From positions 53,196,001-53,260,000 of the forward strand of contig OX597824.1 of assembly GCA_951406725.2 (NCBI GenBank): a DNA stretch of 64,000 nucleotides, given 5' to 3'. This stretch comes from Octopus vulgaris. Lineage: Eukaryota. How positions within the stretch are numbered: position 1 is the first letter of the stretch; each line of letters starts with the position of its first letter. The position numbers were made by a program, and so were the translations under genes. Below the pieces are notes generated by a model. The model did no database searches, was not told the DNA's origin, and saw nothing but the letters and a program-made list of their open reading frames with translations. Shown in pieces: positions 7,432 through 63,962 of this stretch.

Positions 7432-7760
7432 TATGTGGGCACAGGACGTTACGGAACGTAGACAATAGAAAAAACGTAAACATGAGATACGAAATACGAA
7501 AACATGGAATATGAACTTTGTCTTGCAACAACGAAAGAAACAAATGGAAAAGAAAACAAGTAATATAACGGACGACACTTCATCAGTTGTCGGCTATTTT
7601 TCTAAACCCTATTAAGAAAAACACTTGTTTTCTTTTCCATTTGTTTCTTTCGTTGTTGCAAAAACAGTTCATATTCCATGTATTCGTATTTCGTATCTCA
7701 TGCTTTCGGTTTTTTATGTTGTTTATGTTCCGTGACATCCTGTGCCCACATATGCATATG
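7432..7760. repeat. Inverted pair of a dispersed repeat (family Y; another copy at ~38540-38760)
   Basis: gtgggcacagga...caacaacgaaagaaacaaatggaaaagaaaacaagt and its reverse complement at ~7622-7750; cttcatcagttgtcggct shared with 38668-38685. Confidence 0.8.
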
Positions 7761-7787: not shown

Positions 7788-8069
7788 AAGCAATAATAAA
7801 TCTTTGAACGAGGTATAAACAGTAACTGCACAACGATGTGAGGTATATTTGCCATCTCAATATGGCTAACCACTAAGGGTGGGTGTTACTGTAGCTTGTA
7901 GCCCCAGGAGAACATCTCCTCCAGCTGGCTATAGGCACACTTTCTGTGCCCTATCGGTATTTGCAAAGGGAGGTCATCCTTCCCTCGTCAACCTAAGTGA
8001 TACGCACGGACTGTAGTTTCTGGGTATTGACCCATCATCAGCGCACGACAATCACCGGTTTACGATGAA
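7788..8069 (-). mobile_element. Retrozyme-like HHR repeat, copy 1, part downstream of the Tx1 insertion (reconstructed unit 354 bp)
   Basis: 7788-7916 is directly repeated at 13655-13783 (~4 mismatches); contains an HHR; removing the Tx1 and one TSD gives a 354-bp period. Confidence 0.8.
7997..8055 (-). ncRNA. Type I hammerhead ribozyme (predicted GUC cleavage between 8009 and 8008)
   Basis: Minus: GTGAT TGT CGTGCG CTGATGA TGGGT caat ACCCA GAAA C TACA G TC | CGTGCG T ATCAC; full core, stem II 5 bp, stem I with GU pairs; covaries with the HHR at 39011-39071. Confidence 0.85.
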
Positions 8070-8409
8070 TTTATCTTTATTATGATCAAGTGATCTAACA
8101 TAGAATTGGGACATTACAGGACAAAACAATTACAAAAATGCTATGCGAGTTCGAATGAAATTATAAAAATTACAAAAATAAAATTTTACGTAACTTGAAC
8201 GAAAACTTGGCTTACTTTGCCTTGAAACGAAAACTTGGCTTACTTTTGCCTTTATCACGAGAACTTTTAGTGCGTATGTTTTCTTTTTTTATTATTATTA
8301 CTTTATTTTAAACAGTTATGTACAGTGAAAGGGGATGGGAGGTACCAGTTTCAATTTTGAACCCGGCAGCCTATAAGTCCCAGCAGCTGCTTTTTCCTTT
8401 CCTCGATGA

Positions 8410-11400
8410 TTAAGCTGGATTACTCTCACCCACCTTTCTCATCACATCCTTCCAACGTTCCATATACTCTTTCTGTGGCAGGCTCCTCTTCTCCAACCCC
8501 ATCTTGCTCTTCAGATGATATCCAAAGTATTTTAACAAACCGAGGCCAGAGATAAAGGACCCTTTCACTAGACCTTCCATTCTAGTTCTCCATACACACT
8601 CTTTCAATACTGCCACCGTACAGTAAAAACAAGCCTTACCTTCCTTTGAGAGTCCAGTTGGCGGTATCATCTTAATCATGGATCCAGCCGACAGCTGTAC
8701 ACGTCCCAGATGCGACAACACGTGTTCAACGTAACTTATCAAGCCTGACAGCTCCCGACATTGTACAAAAGCGTGTTGAACGGTTTCATCGTCCAACCCA
8801 CATCTTGGACACGTCGGTGGCACTGACATTCCGTGCCTGGATAACTTCTCGCGAACAGGTAATGCATTCCTATAGCACTGCCAGGTCAGGGATTTTGGGT
8901 AATTATCCAAATACCCCGACCTGAAAGTCTTCTTAAACAGGTTGGAAAGTTGATCCTCATCGAATCCCAGAGCCCTTCCTAGGACTTCGTCATTTTTTCC
9001 CTCTACCAGCCCTTTATAGAACACCGAGGTGGTATTCCCGCTGCCGGCCTTGCCCATCTTGTGGATCGGCCAGAGTGCCTGTCGGCACTCCTTCTGCCCT
9101 GAAGTCAGGTTACATCCTTTAATGAGACCGGGTGTAAATCCCTCCATAGAGGCCGGTCGCGGAAAGAATTCCTCTGCCAGCGAACTCCACACCTTATCAT
9201 CCTCTAGGTAACACCAGAGGTGTCTCAGCCTCAACGCATGCTTGCGCATCATTAGCCAAGGCATCCCCAGTCCACCCTTTAGCGGTTGCTGGCAACACAC
9301 GGAGCGTCTCACAAGAGGCTTTCCTCCTTTCCACAAAAAGCGGAAAAGGAGTCGTTCCAACTTGTTTAACCACGAATCGGGGCAAGGCACGACGGTCAGG
9401 CGGTAGGTGACGACAGAGGCTATAAACATCTGTGTCACCTCCGCCCTTCCTTTCAAGGAAAGATGCCTTCCGGACCACTTCCGTACTATGACATCCACCT
9501 TGCTCGTTACCTCGCTCCAATTCTTCTCCGTCTGGGAGTCTGGACCAAACCAGACTCCGAGGAATTTAACAGGACCATCCGTCCAGTGTCCAACAACACT
9601 GGATGGTATCGGCTTGTTCCTCCAGGTGCCGAGGCGCAAACCGATGGACTTGTCCCTGTTAACTTTTGCCCCTGCCACCGCTTCGTATCTATGGAGAGCA
9701 CCTGCTACCCGAGGTAGCTGTGTTCCGTTGGACACGATGCGGGTGACGTCATCCGCATAGGCAGAAACAGACTTACCGCATCCGATTTCATTAGGGTTGC
9801 CTCCCAGATTCTCTAGCTTCCGCAGCAATGGCTCAAGAGCCAAAACATACAGGAGCGGGGACAAGGGACACCCTTGACGAATTGAACGCTTGATCGAAAA
9901 CGGCTCCGTTAGGTAACCGTTTATCTGGACTGTGGACTTGATGCCGCTGTACATAGCTGAGATCCACCCGCAGAAGCCAGGGCCCAGCCCAGCCGCTTCG
10001 AGGACCGCCGCCAAGTACCGATGGTCTACCCTATCAAACGCTTTACTTTGGTCTAAATGGACCAATGCCCCTCCTTTGCCGTCTAATTTCCCGACCCTAT
10101 CTATAGTGTAGCGGAGAAGGTGAAGATTATCCTGGATCGACCTGCCTGGGATTGCACATGTCTGTGCCTTCACGACAAGTTTCTCCACGACAGCCGTCAG
10201 CCTTTTTGCTAACACCTTGGCCAAAATCTTAAACTCTACATTAAGTAGAGTTATGGGCCTATAATTACTAATACTGTCCCCCTTGCTCGGGTCTTTCTGG
10301 ACAAGCGTCACAACTCCCCGACTCACAGAGCTGGGAATCCTCCCATTCTATTGCCAGTTTGCATAGACGCTTGCCAGTATGTCCCCGAACAAGTCCGGCA
10401 TACAACAATAAAATTCATAGGGCAGACCATCCAACCCCAGCGACTTTTCCCCGGCGCACTCGGCCATAACCCCTCTTACCTCCGCGGGAGAGATCGATCC
10501 TTCACAGCACTCCGCCTCACCTGCCGAGAGCCGAGGCCCACCAGCTAGGAAGTCCTTTAAGGTCTCCCCACGCTCGAGCGGACCACCGCCCCCAAACAGC
10601 CGAGCGAAATGCTGGTGAAGGACCTTCTGCATCTCCTCCTGTCCATAGATCTTGCGGTCCTGCTCGTTAGTTAAGGACATAATACAGGACTTTTTGCCCT
10701 TCTGACTCTCCTCACGACGGGCCCATCCGGCAACGTTAATACCTTCTCGTTTTCCTGCACGTAACTTAGCTCTGACTCTGCACCCCTCATGCTTGGCGTT
10801 GAGGTGACGGTACAATACCGCTCTCGCTGCCAACACTCCGGATGCACAGCCAGATTCCATAGCCTCGTCTAAGTTCTTAACTAATTCGCTCTCTATTCTA
10901 GTCCTATCTAAACTTAGCTGCTTGCTAAATCTAATGGACTCCAAACGGATGGCTCTTTTGAGGTCGAGCCACCATCTATTATTAATGATGGTGTCACATA
11001 ATGCCCTCTGTACTAATTCCTTAATCCGGGTACGGAAAGCTTCACAAGTCAAAATAGACTTGTTCATTTTCCAGTACCCGGGACCTTGTCTATGGCATTT
11101 ATCAACCTGTACCTCACACGTCACAAGTTTGTGATCCGTGTAAGGCACAACAGAGAATTGTGGACAGCTAACACTATTCTTATCTCGTTCCTTAACAAAT
11201 ACTCTATCTATGTACGATCTGCATGAGCCGTCGTTATTACTCCACGTCCACTGTGGAACGTTCGGCTCATCCAGTCGAAAACGGTTTACTAGATTAAAGC
11301 TCGCCAGTAGAGCCTTGAGGCCAGGATTCCCCTTCCTATCGCTCGAGCCTACACCATCCACCCGCGCATCGAGAATGGTGTTGAAATCCCCTACCAAGAC

Positions 11401-11799
11401 TACCGTTTTGGACGTCACTAGAAAGTGCTCCAGTTCCCGAAAAAGACCGGTCTGCCCACGTCCATTAGGAGCGTAGACGGCCACCAACCTGAAGGACTGC
11501 TTACTCACGTGCGTCACATCTAGGACAACCAGCCTACCTTCTGGGTTCAGAAAGACAGTACTTACCTGTAAGTCCAAGTTCTTCCTGAAAAGAACTGCCA
11601 CGCCTGCACCTCCCTCCCGGCTAGGAGAAATAAATTTCTCGTAACCATTGAGAAGTGGTGAGAACGCTTGGGGTCCTTTCATCTTGGACTCGGTAACAAT
11701 AGCTACATCGATTCTATGTGAAATGAGGTCGTCCCAAAAACAAGCCTGTTCCCATTTCGATCCCATTCCACGCACATTTATACAACCTAACTTAATCAT
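8410..11799 (-). pseudogene. Tx1 ORF2 (APE endonuclease + RT + C-terminal CCHC), one in-frame stop at 10348-10350
   Basis: NVRG, VYAPN, LVGDFN, SYIDR, TDHK (APE); YRPITLLN, LDQSKAFD, QGCPLSP, AYADDV (RT); CPRC..ETVQHAFVQC; TAG here vs CAG in copy 2. Confidence 0.92.
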
Positions 11800-11822
11800 C
11801 GAAAAAAAAGAAAATTATTTAC

Positions 11823-13314
11823 TCACGGTTGCGAGAGGGAGCCTGACAGATCCCTTCTGCCTGTCTCCCCCCCCTCGCCGTTGCTGCTGGGCGTTTCACC
11901 GGCGTTGCCACCGGGCTCTGGGTTGGTGTGGCTGCCGGGCTGACGTATAATTTCCCAGTTGTCACCTCCTGGGTGACATCCTTAATGAAGCCGGCTTTTA
12001 CGTGGTCTTGTAAGTTTTTCCTTTCCATCCTTCTTCGCCGACCCTTGCATATCGCCACCCCGCTTCCTTCTCGGTCGCTTTGTAGCCCCTGATCTGCATA
12101 CTTGCTTGCACAAATTTTACTGCTCTCTCGTTCCTTGTGGTGTATGCTATAATTTTTTCATTGGGTTTAAACCCTTTTACAGTTGGTGGGTGGGGTTTGT
12201 TAAAGTGCTGGCCTATAAATGTAGTACCGCCGGGGTGGGATTGGAGAATATTTTTAATTTGTTCGTCTGCGTTGTTTTTTCTTTTGTTACGGGTGGGGAG
12301 TCAGGGGTGATGGATTTTTTCCTTTTGTTCGACACGTTCGTGAATTCCATCTCTTCTTGTATATTTGTTTTCGTTGTATTAATTTCCTCTTCCTTTCCTT
12401 TCTCATTTTGCATTTCGTTCCTGTCTTCCTCCTTTTTGGAGTTCGACCTGTTTTTTTTTACCTCCTTGCTTTCGCCAGTCGTTACTCTGTTCTCCACTTT
12501 GCTGCTTTCTGCGTTCTTCACAGCGTTTTTTTTTGGGGGGGGCATTGCCCGTATTATTTTTCTTTGTTCAAACGGAGCGAACGTGGCCCTTTTGCCCGCA
12601 CTTAAAACATCTGGGCCTGCGTCCTTCCACCGAAAGTCGTATGGAGTGCCCCTCCCCTACGAAGACTCTATCTGGTAGGCTTTCCAGCATCGCATTTTCC
12701 ACCTGGATAATCATCTCCAGCTGCTGGCCTCTCCAGTGTTTTGCTATTTTCCTCTTCATACTCAAAATTGTCAATTTTGATTCAACATTAAAAATGACCG
12801 CTGTTGCCGCCCACATCACGTCGTAGCCCCTTGGTATATCTTCTAGGGTCACCTTTGCTGTTCTGCACCCTAAATATAAGTGTAGCAGTATTATATTCTC
12901 GTTTTTCAACGTTTGCGTCGAAATTTGCCTTGCTTCTTCCGCCGTCTCAAAATGCGCCTCCACTGTAGCGCTTCTTGTACCTCGGTTGACATGACGAACT
13001 TTATTCCATATTGATGCCATACACTTTTCGACCATTTCGTTTTTTACGTCGGTCATTCGTTTTTCTTTTATATTGTACACTTTATAGGTGACCATTTTTT
13101 CCCTTATTGCCTGTATAGTCTCAGGGGGCGGTACCAATCGTGTTTCTTCACCTCTTTTTTGCACAAGCGGTCTGAACATGAATAGTCTTTCCATTGACAC
13201 CTCCATTTCTTTCACTTCGCCACCTACGGCGTCTGAAAAACTGGGTTTTGCCTGTGTTTCCTTTTGTTTAACAGTTGTTGTACCTTCTCCCATCTCGGGA
13301 AAGTCTAATTCCAT
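11823..13314 (-). pseudogene. Tx1 ORF1 (gag-like, zinc knuckle), frameshifted
   Basis: RPRCFKCGQKGHVRSV(C) knuckle; split over ORFs 12568-13326, 12213-12545 and 11819-12058; homologous to 42753-44097. Confidence 0.85.
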
Positions 13315-13565
13315 ATTAGACAACACAAACTTGTCACAAATGACAAGAGAATTTTTTTTTCAAAAATAACCTATACAGGTTAAGAGTTCACACAAAAAAA
13401 AACACAGAGATTTTCTACCCCGAAGGGCGAAAATTACTGGGTCAAAAACAGTTCAACAATTATATTACGTGTAACACAACAAAGTAGACAAACGGAAACG
13501 AACTCACACAACGATTTGCAGCAACAGAAAAATATTTGATATACTCCGAGGAAAAATTCAAAAAA

Positions 13566-13886
13566 CACCGGTTTACGATGAAAGGAGTCCCAATGCAAAT
13601 ACTTATATCCTTTTTCCAGTAACCTTTCGTCACTGATCTTGAAAAAGTGTATACAAGCAATAATAAATCTCTGAACGAGGTATAAACAGTAACTGCACGA
13701 CAATGTGAGGTATATTTGCCATCTAAATATGGCTAACCACTAAGGGTGGGTGTTACTGTAGCTTGTAGCCCCAGGAGAACATCCGATAGGGCACAAAAAC
13801 ACCCACCCTTAGTGGTTAGCCATATTGAGATGGCAAATATACCTCACATTGTCGTGCAGTTACTGTTTATACCTCGTTCAGAGATT

Positions 13887-13890
<4 letters not shown>
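13566..13890 (-). mobile_element. Retrozyme-like repeat copy 1, upstream part: rest of monomer, partial tandem copy and inverted arm
   Basis: 13655-13783 = 7788-7916; 13783-13890 is the reverse complement of 7945-7957 plus ~7795-7887; flanked by (TA)n. Confidence 0.8.
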
Positions 13891-18843: not shown

Positions 18844-19003
18844 CAAGCTTTGAAACAATATAAATAACTCTGTTGTATATTCAAGCTCTTTCTAAACAGA
18901 GATTAATGGATCAACTGGGTGATTTCAATGTGGTAATGAGAATCCAGTTATATTTTTTCGGTATGTATAATATAAATATATTAGGTATATATAATACTTA
19001 TCA

Positions 19004-19098
<95 letters not shown>

Positions 19099-19100
<2 letters not shown>

Positions 19101-19670
19101 TGCAATGTTTATTTTTGAGAGTAGTGGTTTTCTGATTGCAGCCATCCCGTGTAATCCGGCTTTGTGCAGCTCACGACGAACAGTTTTTGTGGAAACTGGG
19201 TTCTCGAGGTGGTCATTAAGCTCTGCAGTAATTTTCGGAGCTGTACTTTTGTGATCATTTCTGACAATTCGCGTAAGAGTCCGACGGTCCCTATCTGAAA
19301 GCATTGGTTTTCTTCCGGAGTTTTGTTTCGACGCGGAGGTTTTTCCCTCTTTCTCAAAGGCCGTCATTACTTTCCAGACAGTACTTCTTGATACAAACAT
19401 TTCAGCTGTTTTCGTTACGCTAGCATCTGTCATACGTGCACAAACAATTTGACCTCATTGAAAGTCCGTTAGATCTGTCATTTTAATAAATTTTAATTAC
19501 CTTCTTCTGGTGATATCTGAAAAGAAGCAGCAATTTTAGCAAAACATATTAAGCAACACTAATAATAAATCAAAAAACATAAAAATAAACAAACTTTTAA
19601 CGATTTTATAGATATTTCAAAATTATGATGAGATGATGCTAGGTGCTTCCATTATTTTGTCTAACCCCTG
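19099..19670 (-). mobile_element. Tc1-family transposon 5' fragment (TIR + paired-like HTH region), truncated at (CA)n
   Basis: TA|CAGGGGTTAGACAAAATAATGGAAGCAC end; ASVTKTAEMFVSRSTV..SGRKPMLSDRDRR..VSTKTVRRELHKAGLHG..RKPLLS. Confidence 0.85.
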
Positions 19671-38485: not shown

Positions 38486-38758
38486 TATATACATACATAT
38501 GTGTACATAATTACATATATATGTGTATACATAAGCATATATGGGTACAGACCGTGATAAAACGTAAACAAAAGGAGATACAAAATCAACATGAAATATG
38601 AACATTTTTTGCGAACAACGAAAGAAACAAATGGAAAACAAGATAAGTAACATAAAGAACGACCCTTCATCAGTTGTCGGCTGTTTTATCTACTCCACAT
38701 TTCGAGCAATTACGACAAGGTGGGTCTTCCAGAAACAGTTGCTCTCGCATAGCAAATA

Positions 38759-38806
<48 letters not shown>

Positions 38807-39082
38807 CAATGATAAATCTCAGAGCGAGTTATAAACAGTAGCGGTAACACAACGTGATGCATATATGCCATTTGAATATGGCTAACCCAAAAGGGTGGAT
38901 GCTACTGTAGTTTGTAGCCCCAGGAGGACACCTCCTCCCGCTGGCTATAGACACACTATCTGTGTCCTGTCAGTATTTGTGAAGGGGAGTCATCCTCCCC
39001 GTCTTCAACACATGATACACACGTACCCGAGTTTCAAGGTGTTTACCTTTCATCAGCGTGTGACAATCATGGTTGTCGACGA
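38807..39082 (-). mobile_element. Retrozyme-like HHR repeat, copy 2 (diverged subfamily; reconstructed unit 353 bp), part downstream of the Tx1
   Basis: 38807-38970 directly repeated at 44422-44585; homologous to 7788-8069 with compensatory changes. Confidence 0.8.
39011..39071 (-). ncRNA. Type I hammerhead ribozyme (predicted GUA cleavage between 39024 and 39023)
   Basis: Minus: CATGAT TGT CACACG CTGATGA AAGGT aaac ACCTT GAAA C TCGG G TA | CGTGTG T ATCATG; perfect stems I and II. Confidence 0.9.
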
Positions 39083-39339
39083 ATTTCTTTATTACGATCA
39101 TAAAATCATTACATAGAAGGACAATACAGGACATACATACAAAAAACAGTTAAGTGGTTCGATTAAAAATTTTCCATAATATATGGATTATTCCTTATAC
39201 AAAATTTGTATTTAAATGGTCCTTTGCATTGACTAATAGAGCATTACAACATTACATAGCTTGAGATCTTACCGATATATTTTAAACCCCGGCAACCTAT
39301 AAGGCCCCGCAGCTTTTCTTTCCTCTCCTCCATCCATAG

Positions 39340-42300
39340 TTAAGCTGGGTTTCTGACACCCACCTTTTTTGCCACTTCCTTCCATCTTTTTTCATACACA
39401 CCTCGTGGAAAGATCTTCTTTTCCAGCCCCATTTTGCTCTTCAGATGATATCTGAAGTAAGTGAGCAAGCCGGGGCCTGAGACAAAGGATCCTATTGCGA
39501 CTCCTTCCATTCTTGTACGCCACATGCATTCTTTTACTACTGCAACCGTGCAGTGAAAACATGCCTCACCTTCCTTCGAGAGTCCAGTTGGCGGTATCAT
39601 CTTAATCATAGACTCAGCCGACAGCTGTACTCGTCCCAGATGCGATAACACGTGTTCTGCGTAACTTATCAAGTCTGAAAACTTCCGACAGTGTACAAAA
39701 GCGTGCTGGACGGTTTCATCGTCCAACCCGCATCTTGGACACGTCGGTGGTACTGAAATTCCGTGCCGCGATAACTTCTCGCGAACAGGTAAAGCATTCC
39801 TATAACACTGCCAGGCCAGGGATCTTTGGAAGTTATCCAAATACCCCGTCCTGAAAGTCTTTTTAAACAGGTTGGTAAGCTGGTCTTCGTCAAACCTCAG
39901 AGCCCCTCCTAGGACGTCGTCGTTCTTTGCCTCTACCAGCCTGCTATAAAATACCGAGGTGGTATTTCCGCAGCCGGCCTTGCCCGCCTTGTGGATCAGC
40001 GTGAGTGCCTGTCGGCACTCCTTTTGCCATAAAGTCAGATTCCGTCTTTTGATGTGACCGGGTTTAAAATTCACTAAGGAAGCCGGTCTCGGGAAAAATT
40101 CCCCTGCCAGCGGACTCCACACCTTATCACCCTCCAGGTGGTGCCAGAGATGCTTCAGCCTCAACGCATGCCTGCGCATCATCAACCAAGGCATTCCTAA
40201 CCCACCCTTTAACGGTTCCTGGCAGCAAACGGAGCGCCTCACAAGTGGCTTTCCTCCCTTCCACAAAAAGCGGAAAAGGATTCGTTCCAACTTGCTAAGC
40301 CATGAATCGGGGCAAGGGACAGCGATCAGGCGGTAAGTGATTACAGATGCAATGAACATCTGTGCCACCTCCGCCCTTCCTTTCAAGGACAGAGACCTTC
40401 CGGAGCAGGTCCGTACTATGGCCTCCACCTTGTCCGTCACCTCACTCCAATTCCTCTCCGTTTGGGAGTCTGACCCAAACCAAACTCCTAGCAACTTAAC
40501 AGGACCATCCGTCCAGTGTCCCACGACACTGGACGATATCGACTTGCTCCTCCAGGTGCCGAGGCGCAAGCCAACCGACTTGTCCTTGTTAACCCTTGCT
40601 CCTGTCACCGCCTCGTATCCTCTGATAGCATCTTCTACACAAGGTAGCTGGGCCTCATTGGACACGATGAGGGTGACATCATCCGCATAAGCAGTAACCG
40701 TCCTCCCACCTCCGATCTCATCCGGGTTACTTCCCAGCCTCTCCAACTTTCGCAGCAATGGCTCGAGAGCCAACACGTACAAAAGTGGTGACAAGGGGCA
40801 CCCTTGACGAACTGAACATTCGATCGAAAACGGTTCCGTTAGGTAACCGTTTATCTGGACGGTGGACTTGATGCCGCTATACATAGCGGAGATCCACCCG
40901 CGAAATTCAGGGCCCAGTCCAGCCGCTTCGAGGACCGTCGCCAGATACTTATGGTCTACCCTATCGAACGCTTTACTTTGGTCTAAATGGACCATTACCC
41001 CGCCCTTGCCGGTTAATTTACCCACCCTATCTAAGGTATAGCGTATAAGGTGAAGATTGTCCTGGATCGACCTGCCTGGAATTGCACATGTCTGTGCTTT
41101 CCCTACAAGTTTCTCCACGACAATCGTCAACCTTTTTGCCAACACCTTGGCCAAAATCTTTAACTCTACATTAAGTAGAGTTATGGGCCTGTAATTACTA
41201 ATGTTATCCCCCTTGCTCGGGTCTTTCTGGATTAGCGTCACCACTCCCCGGCTTACAGAACTGGGAATTCTCCCATTCTGCTGCCAGTTCGCGTAGACGC
41301 CTGCCAATATTCCCCCGAACAAGTCCGGCATACTTTGGTAAAACTCGTAGGGCAGACCATCCAACCCCGGCGACTTCTCCCCGGCGCATCCGGCCAGTAT
41401 CCCCTCTATCTCCGCGGGAGTGATCGCTTCTTCACAGCACTCCACCTCACGCCCCGAGAGCCGCGGTCCGCCGGCTAGGAAGTCCTTTAAGGCCCTCCCC
41501 CGCTCCTGCGTCACACCACCCCCAAACGCGCGGGCGAAATGCTGGTGAAGAAACTTTTGCATCTCCTCCTGTCCATAGATCTTTTGTCCCTGTTCGTCAG
41601 TTAAAGACTTGATTGAAGCTTTGTTACCTCTCTGACTCTCCATTCGACGGGCCCATCCGGCAACGTTAATACCTTCTCGTTTCCCAGCGCGTAGCTTAGC
41701 TCTAACTCTGCAACCTTCGTGTTTGGAGTTAAGGTGACGGTACAATACCGTCCTTGCCTCCATCACTCCGGATACAGAGCCAGCTTCCATTGCCTCGTTT
41801 AGATTCTTAACTAAATCGTCCTCTATCCTAGACCTATCTAACCTTAGCTGATTGCTAAATCTAATGGACTCTGAACGAATGGCTCTTTTGAGGGAGTGCC
41901 ACCATCTATTGTTAATGATGGTGCCACACAATGCCCTCTGTACTAACACCTTAATCCGGGTACGGAAGTCTTCACAATTCAAAATAGACTTGTTCAGCTT
42001 CCAGTACCCGGGTCCCTGTCTATGGCACTTATCTAATTGCACCCTACAAGTCACAAATTTGTGATCCGTGTAAGGCACAATGTGAAACTGTGGACAACTA
42101 AACGTATCCTTATCTCTTTTCCTAACGAATATCCTATCTATATACGATCTGTGTGACCCGTCGTTGTTACTCCACGTCCACTGTGGAACGCTCGGCTCAT
42201 CCAGTCGATAACGGTCCACTAGATCAAAGCTCTCTAGTAGACCCTTGAGGCTAGGGTTCCCCTTCCTATTGGTTGAGCCAACACTGTCGACCCGCGCTTC

Positions 42301-42729
42301 AAGGACAGTGTTAAAGTCCCCTACTAAGACTACCGTTTTCGACATCGCTAAAAAGTGCTCCAGATTCCGAAAAAAACCCGCCTGTCTACACTCATTCGAA
42401 GCGTAGACAGCTACCAACCTGAAGGACTGTTTACTTACGTGGGTCACATCCAGAACGACCAGCCTGCCTTCTGGGTCCAGAAAGACAGTACTTACCTGCA
42501 AGTCCAAGCTCTTCCTGATAAGGACTGCCACGCCTCTTCCTCTTCCTCGGCTAGGAGAAATAAATTTCTCGAAACCATTTAGAAGAGGCGAGAACGCTTG
42601 GGCCCCGTTCATCTTGGACTCGGTTACAATAGCTACGTCCACTCCGTGTGTCGTGAGGTCGTTCAGGAAACAAATTTGTTTCCATTTCGACCCCATTCCA
42701 CGCACATTCACACAACCCAGCTTTGCCAT
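39340..42729 (-). CDS. Tx1 ORF2: APE endonuclease-reverse transcriptase-CCHC, uninterrupted
   Basis: Open 1144-codon frame (39340-42774; first Met aligned with copy 1 at 42729); NVRG/GDFN/YIDR/TDH and KAFD/QGCPLSP/YADD motifs. Confidence 0.92.
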   Translation of the reverse strand: MAKLGCVNVRGMGSKWKQICFLNDLTTHGVDVAIVTESKMNGAQAFSPLLNGFEKFISPSRGRGRGVAVLIRKSLDLQVSTVFLDPEGRLVVLDVTHVSKQSFRLVAVYASNECRQAGFFRNLEHFLAMSKTVVLVGDFNTVLEARVDSVGSTNRKGNPSLKGLLESFDLVDRYRLDEPSVPQWTWSNNDGSHRSYIDRIFVRKRDKDTFSCPQFHIVPYTDHKFVTCRVQLDKCHRQGPGYWKLNKSILNCEDFRTRIKVLVQRALCGTIINNRWWHSLKRAIRSESIRFSNQLRLDRSRIEDDLVKNLNEAMEAGSVSGVMEARTVLYRHLNSKHEGCRVRAKLRAGKREGINVAGWARRMESQRGNKASIKSLTDEQGQKIYGQEEMQKFLHQHFARAFGGGVTQERGRALKDFLAGGPRLSGREVECCEEAITPAEIEGILAGCAGEKSPGLDGLPYEFYQSMPDLFGGILAGVYANWQQNGRIPSSVSRGVVTLIQKDPSKGDNISNYRPITLLNVELKILAKVLAKRLTIVVEKLVGKAQTCAIPGRSIQDNLHLIRYTLDRVGKLTGKGGVMVHLDQSKAFDRVDHKYLATVLEAAGLGPEFRGWISAMYSGIKSTVQINGYLTEPFSIECSVRQGCPLSPLLYVLALEPLLRKLERLGSNPDEIGGGRTVTAYADDVTLIVSNEAQLPCVEDAIRGYEAVTGARVNKDKSVGLRLGTWRSKSISSSVVGHWTDGPVKLLGVWFGSDSQTERNWSEVTDKVEAIVRTCSGRSLSLKGRAEVAQMFIASVITYRLIAVPCPDSWLSKLERILFRFLWKGGKPLVRRSVCCQEPLKGGLGMPWLMMRRHALRLKHLWHHLEGDKVWSPLAGEFFPRPASLVNFKPGHIKRRNLTLWQKECRQALTLIHKAGKAGCGNTTSVFYSRLVEAKNDDVLGGALRFDEDQLTNLFKKTFRTGYLDNFQRSLAWQCYRNALPVREKLSRHGISVPPTCPRCGLDDETVQHAFVHCRKFSDLISYAEHVLSHLGRVQLSAESMIKMIPPTGLSKEGEACFHCTVAVVKECMWRTRMEGVAIGSFVSGPGLLTYFRYHLKSKMGLEKKIFPRGVYEKRWKEVAKKVGVRNPA

Positions 42730-42752
42730 TGTCGGAGAGAGAAAAAATAAAC

Positions 42753-44097
42753 TTACGGTTGGGACAGGGAGCATGACAGTTTAAATCTGCCTGCTTCCCC
42801 TTCTTCCTCCCTTGTGGTCATAGCTGCAGGGGTTATAATAAGTTTGCCCTCCAGTATTTCATTCGTTACATCTCTGATAAGATTATTCTTTAAATGTTCT
42901 TGTAGTGTTTTTTCCTTCCACTCGTCTTCCTTTATTTTTGCAAAGCGAGTGGTTGATTTTGTGTCTGTAGACTTACTGAATAGTTTAAATTTTGAAAATT
43001 TGAAATACTTGTACACCCTATTGTTCTTCTCGTCAAATGCTATAATCTTTTCATTTTTTTTTATCAATTTTTTCAAATCTTGTTTTATGGGGAGGGGTTT
43101 GGCGAACTGTGTTCCAATGAATAAAGTGCCGTGGGGGTAGGGCTGGGGAATTTGTTTTGTATGTATCTCTGCGGTGTTTGCTGATTTTTTCTTTGTTTGG
43201 GGAGGGGAGTCCAGGGTGTTATCTTTTTTCTTTTGTGTGTCACCTGTGTATATTCCATCTGTTCATTTTCATCTTCCGTTTCGGTTCCTTTCCTTGTCGC
43301 AGTCTTGGGTTCTTTTTCCGCCTTTTCTTTTTCAGTGTTTGAAGCACTTTGAGGAGGGGCTTCGTTGATTTTCTTTTTTTTTATGCAGTTTGAGCGGACG
43401 TGACCCTTTTCGCCACATTTGAAGCACCTAGGTCTGCGCCCCTCCACTGACACTCTCATTGAAGTTCCCTCCTCATTAAATACCCTATCGGGTAAGTTTT
43501 CTAGTATCTTATTTTCTGCTTGAACGAGGAGTTCTAGCGCTTGTCCTTTCCAGTGCACCTCCTCTTTCCTTCTCATCTGCAGAATTGAAACTACATCATA
43601 CCCTCTTGGTATATCCTCTACATGTAGTTTGGCTGTTCTTTTTCCCATATACGAAGGTAGCAACATGATATCCTCAGTTTTCAAGGTCATTGATGACACC
43701 TCTCTTGCCACATCAGCCGAGTCGAAATGTGCTTCAACGGTAGCGCTGCAAGCACCTCGAACAACGTGGCGAATTTTGTTCCACACCGGCGACAAGCACT
43801 TTTCTACTATCTCGTTCTTGACATCCATTATTTTTTTTCTTTGTTGCTATAAACTTTGTATACAACTGTCTTTGCCTGTATTTCCTGTACCTTCGCTTGC
43901 GGCGGTACCAGTTTAATTTCATTGCCTTCCGTTTTTACCAAGTTCCGGTATTCGAATAACTGTTCAATCTTGAATTCTACATCCGTTACGGTTCCGCCCA
44001 CTGCGGCCGAAAAAGACTGTTTTTTGACTTCGGTATCCTTTTGTTCACCTTTTCCCATCACGGGAAAGTCACTCCTCGACGCCAAGTCGAACTCCAT
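42753..44097 (-). pseudogene. Tx1 ORF1 (zinc knuckle), frameshifted
   Basis: RPRCFKCGEKGHVRSNC; split into ORFs 43828-44097, 43085-43828 and 42753-43076, with at least one shift at a homopolymer run. Confidence 0.85.
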
Positions 44098-44324
44098 TTC
44101 TCAAATTATGAGAGCAAATGTTTCAAAAAAATTACCTCGAAGGTAATGACAATGTTTAAACACAGAATTTTCAGCCCCGTAGGGCGAAAATTACTGTTAC
44201 ACAACGGACAACTGTTCAATTCACGAGTAACACAAACAACGACGAACAAAAAATACGAACTCACTCAACAAAAAGGCAGCAAAATTCTCAAAACGCAGAT
44301 GAAAGAGGGGTCCCTAGACGAATA

Positions 44325-44753
44325 ACAATCATGGTTGTCGACGAGAATTCAGATTCCTTCACAAATACATATACTTTTTCCAGTGTCGATATGACACTGA
44401 TATTGAAAAAGTGAAATCAAGCAATGATAAATCTCAGAGCGAGTTATAAACAGTAGCGGTAACACAACGTGATGCATATATGCCATTTGAATATGGCTAA
44501 CCCAAAAGGGTGGATGCTACTGTAGTTTGTAGCCCCAGGAGGACACCTCCTCCCGCTGGCTATAGACACACTATCTGTGTCCTGTGTGTATCATGTGTTG
44601 AAGACGGGGAGGATGACGCCCCTTCACAAATACTGACAGGACACAGATAGTGTGTCTATAGCCAGCGGGAGGAGGTGTCCTCCTGGGGCTACAAACTACA
44701 GTAGCATCCACCCTTTTGGGTTAGCCATATTCAAATGGCATATATGCATCACG

Positions 44754-44754
<1 letters not shown>
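44325..44754 (-). mobile_element. Retrozyme-like repeat copy 2, upstream part with partial tandem copy and 171-bp inverted arm
   Basis: 44422-44585 = 38807-38970; 44584-44754 = reverse complement of 38852-39022; (TA)n flank. Confidence 0.85.
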
Positions 44755-45149: not shown

Positions 45150-45223
45150 AGGCATATGGCCTAGTGGTTAAGAGCGCGGGCTACTAGCCCCAGGATTCCG
45201 ACTTCGATTCCGGGCAGTGGCCG

Positions 45224-45225
<2 letters not shown>
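45150..45225 (+). mobile_element. tRNA-like SINE head followed by (AAT)n
   Basis: tggcctagtggttaagagcgcgggc (A box) ... cttcgattccggg (B box). Confidence 0.5.
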
Positions 45226-45280
<55 letters not shown>

Positions 45281-45281
<1 letters not shown>

Positions 45282-48200
45282 TCCTATAACATTCCTTCCT
45301 GATTTTCTCTTTCATGCTTGCATGCTGAATACCAGAGCCTTCATTTATCCCTAAATATTTGTATGTTTGTTCTTGCTCAAGCTCTCTTATGACTGTGTCA
45401 ACATCTAACACGACTGAATTTGTGGTCTTCACTTTCCCTTTCTGGAAAGTGGCCTTGGCACACTTCTCAAGTCCAAACTCCATCCCGATGTCATCGCTGA
45501 ATGCTTTCACGGTGCGTAATTGGCCTTCAAGTTCATTATTGTCTTTACCATAAAGTTTTAAGTCATCCATATAAAATAGATGGCTTATTTTTTTATTGGC
45601 AATTTTATACCCATACCCTGTTCTGTTTAATTCACTTGTAAGGGGTATTAGGGCTATGCAGAATATTAAAGGTGAAAGTGAGTCACCTTGAAAAATTCCA
45701 CAGTTGATGTTTATATTTTCTGAGGCAAGTACTCCATTAGAGTGGTATAATTGGAGATTCGTATTCCACAACGACATATTGTGCTTCAGGAAGTTTGAAA
45801 TCACAGGGGAAATTTTGAAGATGTCCAGCGATCTCAAGATCCATGGATGCGGTATACTGTCGAAGGCCTTTTTATAGTCAATCCATGCGGTGCTGAGATT
45901 TCTGCGCTTGTTGTGACAGTTCTCAAGGATCATACGATTGATTAGCAGTTGATCTTTGCATCCGTAAGAGCCTCGGCGGCACCCTTTTTGTTCAATGGGG
46001 AAAATATCGTTCTTCTCCATGAATGCATATGTTTTCTCCGCCAGGATAGATGTTAGGATTTTATACGTGGTGGATAGACAGGTTATAGGCCGATAGTTTT
46101 TTGGAAGGTTGGTTTCGTTATTCTTTGGGAGTAGGTAAGTAATGCCACTTGCTAACCATTCAGGTGTTTTCTTTGGGTCTCTCATAATTCCATTGAGCAG
46201 CTGAACTAGCTTACCGTGTGCGCACGGGAGCGATGCGAGCCAGAAATTCGGCACCCTATCTTTACCGGGGGATTACCAATTATGGGCCTTCGTGAGTGCC
46301 TTTCTTAGGTCTGCTATTGTGATGTCTTCCCATGCTTGTAAATTTTGGTAGGATCCTTCAGTTTGTATAATCCAGTCTGCATTTATGTTGTACGTCTTCT
46401 TGTCACTCCAAATCCTTTTCAAAAAGTTTTGAACTTCTTCCATGGGAGGGGGGTCTTTAACGGTTACTTTCTCCTTCCCTATTTCTCTGTAGAATTTTTT
46501 GGCATTGGATGTGAACAGCTTATTTTGCTTGTAAAACTTGTTTCGCTTCTCAAATCTTCGTATTCTTTGGGCTTTTGCTTGGACTTTTTGTTTCAGCGTT
46601 TCTTTTATTGATATCAGTTCTTCTCTTGGTGAGGATCCAAATTTTCTCTTCATCTTTCTTCCTGTTCTGGATCTTACATCATTTCCACATATTAGTTCAT
46701 TTAATATTGATATTTCCCCTCTCATAAATTCAATCTCTGTTTCAATTTTACTTCTCCAGGTTTGATTTCTTCCCAGGTTTTGTTTTCTTTGTTTTTTCGG
46801 GGGCATACAGCTGGTTTCAATTGCCCTAGCAGAAGCGTAAATAATTTCATTTAACTCAGTAAAATCAGGTTTTAATTCTCGTATTATTTCATTTGTTACA
46901 TAGTTGCCAATTTGGATTTGTTTTTTATTTTGGTTTGTATTTGAGAGTTTATGAAGCGGTTCTCTATCATTCATACTTGTATGTCTTACAACTTCAAGCG
47001 TATTCAGGATTTTCTGCCTCATTTCTGCCATAGACTCTCTGTGTTCTTCAGCAAATGCGAGATCTTCAGTTACTGTTGTTTTTTCGTTTTCCTGGCTATC
47101 TTTAACTGGTACAATAGAATTTCTTGTATCTTCAGGCCTTTGCGTACTTTGGTCAGATGGCAGTCTTTCAATTAAGCCTCGTGGCGGGCTATACTGTTCA
47201 TCTGATTCTTCATTTCCTTTGTGTCTTATATTTATGTCATTTTCTGTTGCGTGCTTGATCGCGCTTATTTCACTGTCTGTGAGTCTGTTATTTCTAAAGG
47301 AAGGAATGTTATAGGAGAGTTCGTGCAGTCCTGAAATCTGAACTAAATGCACGTAACAAGGTGTTAGCTATAAATTCCTTAGCAGTTCCAGTTGTTACTT
47401 ATAGCTACAATGTGTTGAACTGGAATATGAGTGAAGTAAAGAATATAGATAGAAAAATACGCAAGCTGCTGGGTTGTAATAGGATGCACCACCCAAAGGC
47501 AGACGTAGATCGCCTTTACCTTCCCAGAGCCCAAGGAGGTCGAGGCCTGATCCAATTTGAACTAGCTTACAAAACAACCACAATTGGACTGGCCAAATAT
47601 CTCGAAATATCGAATGACTGGATGCTAAAGCTCGTGGAAAATCACGAGAGACGAAAGAAGCTTCATTCTATCATCAAGGAAAGCAAAAAATTTGCTATTG
47701 ATCTCGTGCAGGATACCCAAACTGAACAACCCGAGGGAAGTACGGCAACTATTGTTGCAAAGAAGGTGAAAATGATGGCAATGAAAAAAGCGCACGAGCA
47801 ATTGGCTGATAGGTGGGAAGAGAAACCTCTGCACGGCAAATATGTGACCCGCAGCAAACAAGCTGATGTTGACCAGAAGCAAACCCATCAGTGGCTGCGG
47901 AGCTCAGGGCTAAAAGCAGAGAGCGAAGGTTTCATCCTGGCTGCTCAAGACCAAAGCCTATTAACCCGGAACTACCAGGCCAATGTGATGAACAATGGAG
48001 CAGACCCAAAATGCCGATTCTGCAACGACATGATTGAAACAGTGGACCACCTAATCTCTGGATGTAAAGTATTAGCACCAGTGGAGTATAAATTAAGACA
48101 TGACAGAGTTGGCCAATATCTCCACTGGCTAATAAGTCGGCATTACAATATCAAAACTGCCGACAAGTGGTATAATCACCACCCTGAGGCTGTAACTGAA

Positions 48201-48756
48201 GGAGAAAATGTAACCATTCTGTGGGACTTTCCAGTACATACAGACCGAACCACCAAGGCCAATAAACCAGATATTGTTGTGAAAGACCAAAACAATAAAG
48301 TTTGCTTATTGATCGGCATGAGCATCCCCTGTGATCATAATATCTCAGCGAAAGAGTTTGACAAGCTCAGAAAATATAAAGACCTACTCATTGAAATTGA
48401 GAAAATGTGGCATCTCAAGGCGGTTACAATACCAGTGATCGTAGGAGCACTAGGAATGATCAAGAAGGGAGCCGAAAATTATATGAGAATGATCCCTGGC
48501 TTACCATCCCTGCAAGAAGTGCAAACAATTGTCTTAACTGGTACATCACACGTATTGAGAAGAGCATTGTCGATGTGAGAACTGTTGCTGCTCATGTATT
48601 TTAATTTAACTTTAAAAAAAAAAAATTAAAAAAAAATGAACGAACTACTGAGTTTGGCTTAATGGCCTACCAATATACACTATGAGTTTCTTTGCCCTAG
48701 GAGTCGGGAAGACACTCGGCAAGAAATGGAAGAAAATTTGAAAGAAGAAAAAAAAA

Positions 48757-60935: not shown

Positions 60936-60980
60936 TATACATATATATATATATATGTATATATCCATATATATATATAT

Positions 60981-61944
60981 TTAATCAATATAGGGTGGCA
61001 AAAAATTCAGCAGAAATTATTTGCCACCAGCGGCCTAGTGGGAAAAAAGTAAATAGTCAGAGACTATTAATAAATTCAACAGCAAAATTAAGGAACGGCC
61101 ATAATAGGCCGTTCAACCCACTAGAAATAGCAGCCAAGGCTTCAACCGCAAAACAATATTAATTCCGTAAACCAGGAGAAAATTTTAAAAAACATTTACC
61201 CTGTAATACTTTATACAATGCATCGTTTCGTCTATTTTTTAATGACAAATCAACCTGATTAAATTAAATCAAGCTAATCTTCCATAGGCCAATAGATTCA
61301 TCAGTAAAGTAAGCCAGACGAGACAGATATTTTCACGAGGCAGCACCACTACTGTCTCGGCTATATCTGACCTAAAATTTTCAAATCATCGTACTCGCGC
61401 CAAATTTATCGGCAGCAAATATAAGCTGCCGATTCCATTTCGGAATTAAACAGAAAATTCCTAATTAATCAATATAGGGTGGCAAAAAATTCAGCAGAAA
61501 TTATTTGCCACCAGCGGCCTAGTGGGAAAAAAGTAAATAGTCAGAGACTATTAATAAATTCAACAGCAAAATTAAGGAACGGCCATAATAGGCCGTTCAA
61601 CCCACTAGAAATAGCAGCCAAGGCTTCAACCGCAAAACAATATTAATTCCGTAAACCAGGAGAAAATTTTAAAAAACATTTACCCTGTAATACTTTATAC
61701 AATGCATCGTTTCGTCTATTTTTTAATGACAAATCAACCTGATTAAATTAAATCAAGCTAATCTTCCATAGGCCAATAGATTCATCAGTAAAGTAAGCCA
61801 GACGAGACAGATATTTTCACGAGGCAGCACCACTACTGTCTCGGCTATATCTGACCTAAAATTTTCAAATCATCGTACTCGCGCCAAATTTATCGGCAGC
61901 AAATATAAGCTGCCGATTCCATTTCGGAATTAAACAGAAAATTC
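60981..61944 (-). mobile_element. Tandem dimer of a 484-bp retrozyme-like unit, each monomer with a type I HHR (61207-61311, 61691-61795)
   Basis: 60981-61464 repeated at 61465-61944; minus: TACTTTA CTGATGA aTCTATT..AATAGAc GAAACGAT GC ATTGTA | TAAAGTA. Confidence 0.85.
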
Positions 61945-62132
61945 ATAATTTCCTTCATAAATTCATAATTTCCTTCTCCATTACACTTTTTATAATATTT
62001 TTGATAAGGTTCGTTTTTTCAAGAACCGAAACATGTAAAATTCATAAGAAAATTAAAATTTATCTAATATAGTGGCGTTTTCAAACTTCTTTTTTACAAA
62101 TATATACCCACTCGTATACGATCTACTCTTAT

Positions 62133-62170
<38 letters not shown>

Positions 62171-62173
<3 letters not shown>

Positions 62174-63962
62174 ACATTGTCATTAAACCGGCCGACAAGG
62201 GTGGAGCTGTGGTGGTGTGGCGCGCGGATCTCTACAGGGCCGAGGCGCTCCCCCAACTCAATGACACCTCCTTCTACTCCCCTGTGTCCTCTGACCCCAC
62301 GCTTAGCTACCAACATACGGTCTCCTCTACCGTCCACGACCTCATCTCGTCCTTCTGTCTCCCCCACACCGCATCCAACCTTATTGTCCGAACCCCACGC
62401 ACTCCCACCATTTACTTCCTCCTCCAAATCCACAAACCCAACAACCCTGGCCGCCCCATCGTCTCTGCCTGTAACTGCCCCACCGAGCTTATCTCAAAAT
62501 ACCTCGACCGTGTCCTTGCTCCCCTAGTGGCGTCTCTTCCCTCTCACATTCACGACACCAACCATGCTCTCCGGCTTTTCAACTCTTTCTCTTTTCCTCC
62601 TGGCTCCTCCAAACTCCTCTTTACAATGGACATCCAGAGCCTCTATACCGTCATCCCTCACCACGAAGGACTGCGTGCACTTCAACACTTTCTCGACCTC
62701 CACCCCAACCCCGAACCCGACACCTCCACACTCATTCGTCTGGCCGAATTTGTCCTTTCTCTTAACTGCTTCTCGTTCGCGGGCAAGTTCTACCACAAGT
62801 CTCGGGAGTGGCCATGAGAACGCGAATGGGCCCCAACTATGCGAACCTGTTCGTTGGCTATGTTGAGGCCCAAATATTCTCTAATTTCACTGGTCCCACT
62901 CCCGAACTATACGGTCCTTACATTGACGACTGTATCGGTGCCACTTCACTCTCCCGCGAACATCTAGACTCCTTCCTCTCTTTCGTTAAATCCTTCCATC
63001 CTGCCCTCCACTACACCTGCACTATCTCCAACACCTCTGTCTCCTTTCTTGACATTTCGGTCAGCATTCATCACTCCACTCTTACCACCGCCATTCACTA
63101 CAAACACACAGACTCACACTCATACCTAAACTTCTCTTCCTCCCACCCCAAACACACCAAGCTTTCCATCCCCTATTCCCAATTCCTCCGTCTACGTAGG
63201 CTCTGTAGTGACGACCATGACTTTGAGACTCAGTCTCAACTCATGTTTCGCCATTTCATGCTACGTGATACCCCCTCACCACTGTCCACACCGCCCTTGC
63301 CAGAGCACGTTCTGTAGACCGTGCATCTGCTCTCTCCCCCCGAACCCGCCCTGCAGTCTCCCGCCTCCCTTTCCCCTCGCGTACCACCTCACCACCCTAC
63401 CTCTCCAACGCACCATTCTTCGAGCTTTCCGGCATCCCCAGTCCACTTCACACCTCTTCCCTAACCGACCCCTCCCCTCCTTCAAACGAGCCCATAACCT
63501 ACGAGACCTCTTGGTCCACAGCTTCTTCCCCAACCCTACCTCCCAACCTGGCTCGTTCCCCTGCTCCCGCCCACGTTGCCGCACTTGCCCTTACCTCTCC
63601 AACACCACCCTCCTCACCGGCACCCATCATCGACCCTATCGCATCATCGACTCCTTCACCTGCACCTCCAGCAATATCATCTATTGCATCTCCTGCTCTT
63701 TCTGCCATTCCCTGTACATCGGAGAAACGGGACGCTGCTTGGCTTACCGGTTCGCGGAACACCTCCGAGACATCCACCTCGCCAATGACACTCCAGTCTC
63801 ACGCCATTTTCGCTCCACCGGTCACTCCTTGCAACACCTGTCTGTATTCGGATTGTCCTTGCACAGAGGCCATCCGGATTCCCGTTTGCGCCGTGAACAG
63901 GGATTAATCTTCTCTCTTCGCTCTTTTACGCAATTTGGCCTCAACTCGCCCCCCTTTTCATC
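62171..63962 (+). pseudogene. Penelope-like element (Neptune-type) RT + Cys-rich linker + GIY-YIG, 5'-truncated and frameshifted
   Basis: IVIKPADKGGAVVVW, IHKPNNPGRPIVS, MDIQSLYT, MGPNYANLF, YIDDC, YKHTDSHSYL, PCSRPRCRTC, IIYCISC..LYIGETGR; begins in (TA)n. Confidence 0.9.

Follow-up and report, generated by a model that had tools for sequence, protein, structure and literature searches.

In Octopus vulgaris, a LINE targets a non-coding hammerhead repeat, here referred to as the retrozyme unit, at one exact site. Young copies of this LINE were shown to be inserted at this common site into pre-existing units of several subfamilies, with target-site duplications of 14-20 bp. The retrozyme as such falls within an established class, as described in the available portions of two sources (PMC7229834; bioRxiv 10.64898/2026.07.22.740005). 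The new part is a LINE that targets the predicted transcription start of the retrozyme and that has spread to the starts of U2 genes.

Two interrupted hammerhead units in the window

The window, i.e. the whole stretch of 64,000 nt that was analysed, carries two copies of the unit, A and B, each of which is interrupted by an L1/Tx1-like LINE of 5.3-5.5 kb on the same strand. The minus strand of positions 7788-8069 forms a type I hammerhead, with a CTGATGA core at 8041, stem II, GAAA, a 2-bp stem III and an extended stem I, while a second version belonging to subfamily B has its CTGATGA core at 39056, likewise on the minus strand. Both hammerheads display the CUGANGA/GAAA/NUH core and three helices, of which helix I is open, and the core is intact in each. 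The earlier note on this DNA had quoted two variants each of stems I and II, and all of these are indeed present on the minus strand at the two cores. All other hairpins that it had quoted were found as well, among them ggcaca/gacaca, gggagg/ggggag and one in each spacer (13609-13647 and 44373-44411). Positions 7788-8069 hold 282 of the 354 nt of the unit, and the remaining 72 nt (13583-13654) reside on the far side of the LINE. When computed across the LINE, the repeat period amounts to 354 nt in A and 353 nt in B, confirming the conserved unit length that had been proposed; the natural head-to-tail spacings found elsewhere were 352-360 nt, with one of 374 nt. The downstream copies of A and B are identical in 219 of 283 aligned columns. 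Exact target-site duplications flank the LINE in both cases, 17 bp in A (8053-8069 and 13566-13582) and 20 bp in B (39063-39082 and 44325-44344). On the 5′ side of each LINE, there is a partial unit without hammerhead, plus an inverted arm that ends in (TA)n. Each locus has a single hammerhead per direction, none of them upstream of the LINE, and two head-to-tail hammerhead units are absent from both. The features are as follows:

7788-7996, minus strand: rest of unit A 3′ of the cut (tail), with conserved hairpins and a fixed 3′ end
7997-8055, minus strand: type I hammerhead of subfamily A, built from an extended stem I, stem II, a stem III of 2 bp and the core (8041-8035); cleavage predicted between 8009 and 8008
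8053-8069, minus strand: target-site duplication of 17 bp, 3′ copy, with 8066 as the predicted +1
8070-13565, minus strand: L1/Tx1-like LINE, lineage A; ORF1 at 12568-13359, ORF2 at 8410-11814 with one in-frame stop
13566-13582, minus strand: target-site duplication of 17 bp, 5′ copy, with 13579 as the predicted +1
13583-13783, minus strand: upstream partial A unit without hammerhead, including the 72-nt spacer; PSE-like ATCAGT from 13637 (-58)
13798-13890, plus strand: inverted, 5′-truncated arm of repeat A, followed by (TA)n
38806-39082, minus strand: downstream B unit, ending in (TA)n and including the 20-bp duplication at 39063-39082
39012-39070, minus strand: type I hammerhead of subfamily B with its core at 39056 and a GUA triplet; cleavage predicted after 39024
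39083-44324, minus strand: L1/Tx1-like LINE of lineage B; zf-CCHC in ORF1, and an open ORF2 at 39340-42780 (Exo_endo_phos, RVT_1, zf-RVT)
44325-44591, minus strand: upstream partial unit of B together with the 5′ duplication (44325-44344); ATCAGT at 44401 (-59)
44584-44754, plus strand: arm of insertion B in inverted orientation, with (TA)n behind it

Searched against Rfam, neither the window nor either of its hammerheads gave a hammerhead match, even at E<=1, and a sibling copy (L043) scored 32.2 bits with Hammerhead_1 against a gathering cut-off of 34. The Hammerhead_1 model might not cover the form with a short helix III. Because Rfam scores no window copy, the hammerhead call rests on the core motif, the stems and the covariation. 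With its non-coding repeat in the range of 150-450 nt, its type I hammerhead and its freedom from LTR features, the unit has the attributes by which a non-LTR retrozyme is recognised.

Several other repeats were observed in the window. A non-autonomous element with terminal inverted arms of ~130 bp (gggcacaggacg...catcctgtgccc) and TA-rich flanks at 7437-7752 adjoins the 3′ end of unit A, and a related arm is located next to element B (38540-38700). Just past the inverted arm of B, there are two head-to-head pieces of another non-LTR retrotransposon (45184-47367, minus strand, and 47298-48578, plus strand; RVT_1, with a weak zf-RVT). A tandem pair of 484 bp, 99% identical, occupies 60977-61950. 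In addition, ORF fragments on the minus strand at 2108-2644 and 18981-19454 resemble MULE-type and Tc1-type transposases, respectively.

The LINE and its fixed target

The LINE combines a zinc-knuckle ORF1 (zf-CCHC in element B) with an APE-RT ORF2 of the L1 type (Exo_endo_phos, RVT_1, zf-RVT), for which human L1 ORF2 was the best solved relative (E 5e-64). The designation Tx1-like reflects a resemblance that we assume. Queries consisting of only the LINE 3′ UTR gave 183 and 232 candidates, and the best 30 of each were fetched (60 loci). The unit directly followed the LINE 3′ end, in sense and at a fixed offset, at 46 of these 60 loci, or 44 of 58 when self-hits were left out. Among the remaining 14, four continued into a full U2 snRNA gene from model position 1, one into the first 14 nt of U2 and then another LINE, two into the target duplication and then another LINE, and three into a short target-like stretch followed by sequence of no assigned identity; the 3′ sequence of the last four was given no assignment. 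A LINE is regarded as target-specific when more than 20% of its flanks lie in one repeat (PMC4494074), and the proportion of 46/60 among the best-scoring loci is well above this level.

Both window elements look LTR-flanked, and conceivably the two halves of the unit could be terminal repeats of the LINE itself (pseudo-LTRs), or repeat and LINE could together represent one composite released by the hammerhead. Contig C4 carries a 6.2-kb inverted pair, 99.1% identical, in which each block comprises a whole LINE together with its unit, and this would be in keeping with such an arrangement. However, the C4 LINEs differ by 1 mismatch while their host arms are only 94-96% alike, and composite mobilisation from this pair was rejected on these grounds. 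The LINE on contig C24 shows the same discrepancy, with 0 mismatches in a host of 91-93%; overall, LINE copies separated by 0-1 mismatches across 5.5 kb were associated with hosts of only 91-96% similarity. Furthermore, the LINE end is present in only 4 of 104 non-self unit loci, full-length LINEs of lineage A (96-99% alike) reside in hosts of subfamilies A, C and D as well as in U2, and both window loci lack an upstream hammerhead. Since near-identical LINEs occupy diverged hosts and few units hold a LINE, we conclude that the LINE lands in pre-existing units and that the unit is not its LTR. The pseudo-LTR or composite explanation is largely refuted, and we consider it most improbable.

By eye, no chimera at the cut site was seen in the interval between duplication and cut, where the scoring of such short segments is unreliable. 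Other LINE-like 3′ and 5′ ends were found stacked at the target duplication in the 5′ flanks of four loci (L182, L190, L194, L195) and the 3′ flanks of three (L068, L089, L090), which suggests that further lineages use this target site. At L036, L056, L079 and L084, the LINE 3′ end is followed by sequence that is neither unit nor U2, and L056 carries a hammerhead-like ccgatga..gaaa motif there, possibly from another ribozyme repeat.

Hammerhead fold, core variants and dispersal

The genome search covered 2.8 Gb in 227 contigs. Candidate copies of the unit number in the thousands and fall into at least six subfamilies. Four subfamily queries gave 3883, 2155, 1501 and 2957 first-look candidates, figures that overlap and do not represent copy numbers; for each query, 40 candidates were scored and the best 25-30 fetched. 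When 172 units were clustered, four large subfamilies with mutual similarities of 64-77% emerged, in addition to several small ones. The earlier note had envisaged a highly structured RNA of ~354 nt. This was borne out by five natural cut-to-cut monomers folded as circles (MFE z -3.1 to -8.1, 5/5), while the signal was weak for the 282-nt window piece (z -2.2; antisense -1.6).

In an alignment of 35 sequences, 57 named pairs were paired at 95.9%, and changes on both sides occurred in 20 of the 57 versus 11.7±1.7 in shuffles, a control that ignores relatedness. A tree-aware G-test of all pairs (54 pruned sequences, 28,203 pairs) revealed no significant pair, the two best being hammerhead pairs with E values of 2.1 and 2.4. 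In a branch-wise test of 165 units, the 17 hammerhead pairs displayed 5.7 compensatory events on internal branches against a null of 0.26±0.51, and 4.0 breaks against 22.6±4.5. The 21 non-hammerhead pairs, whose helices were picked after the folds had been seen, were protected from breaks on internal branches (6.6 versus 28.8) but showed no significant excess of compensation (1.0 versus 0.39). On terminal branches, hammerhead breaks were close to the null (45.6 versus 53.2). Four candidate helices (the long stem formed by the target site and the region behind the hammerhead, and the gggagg, accc/ggtt and spacer hairpins) had been dropped from the both-side-change and branch-wise tests on account of poor pairing or alignment register. 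Because the excess of compensation is found on internal branches and terminal breaks are near the null, selection is placed on founder lineages, and the ribozyme is where it has been demonstrated. Taken as a whole, the hammerhead covaries; for the remaining hairpins, the tests show conservation and not covariation. Accordingly, the previously claimed compensatory covariation between two subfamilies stands for the hammerhead, although not for individual pairs or the other hairpins, and the number of subfamilies was too low. Likewise, the notion of an actively selected retrozyme applies to the branches that found subfamilies, whereas individual copies decay near-neutrally.

Loop III was self-complementary in 152 of 165 copies, as a perfect palindrome in 110 and as a G-U palindrome in 42, and six palindromes were encountered (CTGCAG, CTCGAG, CTATAG, CCGCGG, CCCGGG and CTAG). 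In the window A copy, the palindrome is broken, reading CTACAG instead of the CTGCAG of most siblings. The calculated self-duplex of loop III reached -4.8 to -14.1 kcal/mol in 6 of 7 copies tested, as compared to +1.9 to +2.9 for the monomer hairpin, or no possible hairpin at all. Dimer pairing is thus predicted to be energetically favoured, except for the window A copy with its broken palindrome. A palindromic loop III corresponds to the dimer-type hammerhead arrangement, as far as this is described in the available part of PMC4209133. Core positions 3 and 8 were occupied by C3-G8 in 85 of the 165 copies, U3-G8 in 68, U3-A8 in 9 and other pairs in 3. According to the accessible text of PMC3088659 and PMC4209133, U3-A8 is a known natural variant. 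The U3-G8 cores include all copies of the young subfamilies C and D, and in many subfamily A copies stem II is closed by a C-A mismatch. In C and D, the fixation of U3-G8 in place of C3-G8 argues against strong catalysis. Judging from the U3-G8 in 68/165 cores and the C-A mismatches that close stem II, strong hammerhead catalysis may be dispensable for the family.

Insertion geometry was assessed at 108 unit loci, two re-fetches having been dropped. An inverted arm was found at 40 of the 108, and 31 of 51 inverted-arm matches ended at model position 295-315 versus ~350 for the sense end, i.e. ~40 nt short; these inverted-arm counts are approximate, as some profile matches span a hairpin. At 60 of the 108 loci, (TA)n was present within 25 nt of the 3′ end. 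Penelope-like elements (PLEs) show such geometry, including a one-ended tail of 30-40 bp, in the portions available of 10.1101/2021.04.23.441226 and PMC11167929, and all PLE-type signatures, namely 5′ truncation, partial tandem, inverted arm, one-ended tail and (TA)n target, were observed in the retrozyme family. Together with the selection on the hammerhead fold, this geometry supports the earlier view of a non-LTR retrozyme that is likely PLE-mobilised. Two head-to-tail hammerheads were detected at 9/108 loci by motif scan and at 16/108 by the profile, which over-counts, so that loci with at least two head-to-tail hammerhead units do exist in the family. With no more than a single hammerhead in either direction, most loci, among them the two in the window, are unable to give off a 354-nt monomer.

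No autonomous PLE that shares the unit was found, either in one PLE family (20 loci) or among partner ORFs sought in the unit flanks. Matches homologous to the unit were present in 1 of the 20 PLE loci (L224), and were read as a nearby insertion. The PLE family in question is very abundant (6648 candidates) and is represented in the window by a frameshifted Penelope-like RT/GIY-YIG element (62068-63900, plus strand); it was rejected as autonomous partner, as no pLTR common to it and the retrozyme was found. PLE fragments in the unit flanks were rejected as well, with microsatellite or unrelated sequence lying in between.

Conceivably, the hammerhead could by now be weak or vestigial in a PLE-mobilised non-autonomous repeat, whose structure would serve recognition by the PLE protein rather than the production of circles. 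The U3-G8 cores, the small number of dimeric loci and the reported dispensability of hammerhead cleavage for PLE insertion in vitro (PMC11167929, in the part available) are all compatible with this. Nevertheless, compensatory changes concentrate in the hammerhead stems, six different loop III palindromes occur and U3-A8 rescue is observed, and we regard a vestigial hammerhead as improbable. In contig profiles from four sequencing runs guessed to be RNA, the unit was covered, with a dip over the hammerhead, and four untyped runs, three of them large, dipped likewise. One contig in X1 crosses the LINE/unit junction, which was not counted as evidence.

A predicted snRNA-type start and its relation to known systems

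A motif upstream of the LINE site is shared with the snRNA genes of the octopus. ATCAGT starts at -57 to -59 in 15 U1 loci from one cluster and at -59 in 4 U2 loci with two promoter types. In the unit, ATCAGTG was present in 74 of 79 copies with a full spacer, and its distance to the downstream A of ATCG in the target is 58-60 nt in six subfamily representatives, whose intervening bases diverge. When a weight matrix built on three types of snRNA promoter was applied to 7 natural periods, its best match fell at -59 to -61 in 4 of them. Judged by the motif shared with U1 and U2, the unit likely has an internal snRNA-type promoter, with the LINE site as its predicted start. A perfect octamer, ATGCAAAT, is found at -42 to -44 in 14 of the 15 U1 promoters (L235-L249), unusually near the start, and an ATTTGCA occurs in the retrozyme spacer at around -20.

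Four LINE 5′ junctions in U2 genes, three in one array on contig C3 and one on C23, consist of U2 nt 1-14, a 14-nt piece and then the LINE. The 14-nt piece matches the C-type retrozyme target at 13 of 14 positions, starting at the target A, which is the predicted +1. In the very young C24 copy, the 5′ duplication differs from the target at 2 of 14 positions. Both the U2-junction relic and this mismatched duplication would fit a LINE RNA that starts at the host +1. The C3 array (L199-L201; G000:C3:20.81-20.83 Mb) contains three nearby LINEs, 98.5-99% alike, at U2 +1, two of them in tandem, and its displaced U2 genes are deprived of their upstream promoter.

Alternatively, the site could be chosen by endonuclease preference alone, for a T-rich stretch followed by ATCG, in which case the motif would be an RNA hairpin and the hammerhead would merely trim the LINE 3′ end. 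Indeed, ATCAGTG also forms one arm of a folded hairpin, ATCGCT is common to the U2 and C-type targets, the weight-matrix result is mixed and the hammerhead lies 57-58 nt behind every LINE 3′ junction within a unit. On the other hand, the motif stands at an equal distance before U1 and U2, the relic in the U2 copies begins exactly at the predicted +1, and the C24 duplication deviates despite its extreme youth, as if it were derived from the donor. Endonuclease preference as the sole determinant is possible, if rather unlikely; as a contributing factor it is probable, and it is compatible with the promoter reading.

The explanation that we favour, with considerable confidence, is that the unit is a dispersed non-coding retrozyme with a likely snRNA-type promoter, predicted dimer cleavage and likely PLE copying, and that the LINE inserts at one fixed site, likely the promoter start. 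Pol II would start ~59 nt behind ATCAGT, 57-58 nt before the cut site. Two hammerheads would pair via the palindromic loop III and then cleave, the 354-nt monomer or circle being expected only from loci with two head-to-tail hammerheads. As the insertion geometry suggests, PLE machinery would reverse-transcribe the RNA from two start sites ~40 nt apart, so that new (TA)n sites would acquire partial tandems that carry an inverted arm and have a tail at one end. The LINE would borrow the promoter of the unit, its RNA beginning with the first ~14 nt of the host, and this host-derived stretch would surface as a relic when the LINE lands at U2 +1. A fuller scenario of three-tier parasitism seems to us about evenly balanced: a PLE-mobilised retrozyme that carries the promoter, a LINE on its +1 that would obtain its RNA 5′ end from the host and possibly its 3′ end from the hammerhead, and a switch from retrozyme to U2 recorded by the 14-nt relic.

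As far as the available portions of PMC7229834 and bioRxiv 10.64898/2026.07.22.740005 describe the metazoan non-LTR retrozymes, the octopus family resembles them in its non-coding unit of ~350 nt, a GC content of 41-43%, partial tandems, a canonical type I hammerhead with 2-bp helix III and palindromic loop, and the proposed mobilisation by PLEs. Unlike those retrozymes, it consists mostly of dispersed insertions of 1-2 units with inverted arms instead of long arrays, and it includes whole subfamilies with U3-G8 cores. The word 'octopus' does not occur in the available text of either source, nor 'Tx1' in that of the preprint. The pLTRs of Penelope-like elements are, in the accessible parts of PMC4209133, 10.1101/2021.04.23.441226 and PMC11167929, similar in 5′ truncation, partial tandem, inverted arm, one-ended tail and (TA)n bias, and, in PMC4209133, in their dimer-type hammerhead and U3-A8 variant; in contrast, the octopus unit has no ORF and a canonical rather than minimal hammerhead, and an autonomous partner was not found. 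Newt satellite 2 (Coats et al. 1994, as cited in the available part of PMC2220036) likewise combines a hammerhead repeat and an internal Pol II promoter of the snRNA type, whereas the promoter of the octopus unit is predicted, from the motif common to its U1 and U2 genes.

Target-specific LINEs of the Tx1 clade include Tx1L in Tx1D, Tx1-Mar in Mariner-N4 and Keno in U2 (PMC4494074, available portion). The octopus LINE shares with these the APE-RT, the zinc-knuckle ORF1, a fixed site in a mobile element or snRNA gene and tandem stacking, but differs from what the same portion describes in that its target is a hammerhead retrozyme, at the predicted transcription start, and in having a sub-lineage at U2 nt 1 with a retrozyme relic. 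A ribozyme repeat is not named among the Tx1 targets in that portion of PMC4494074, and in the open-access literature that was searched we found no report of a hammerhead repeat as a LINE target.

The target class of this LINE is a ribozyme retroelement, struck at its predicted snRNA-type start. The presence of near-identical LINEs in the retrozyme and in U2 makes target switching, and the borrowing of promoters by promoter-less LINEs, directly testable. In addition, with six palindromes and C3-G8, U3-G8 and U3-A8 cores, the family represents a natural series of dimer-type hammerheads in which to ask whether spread needs catalysis.
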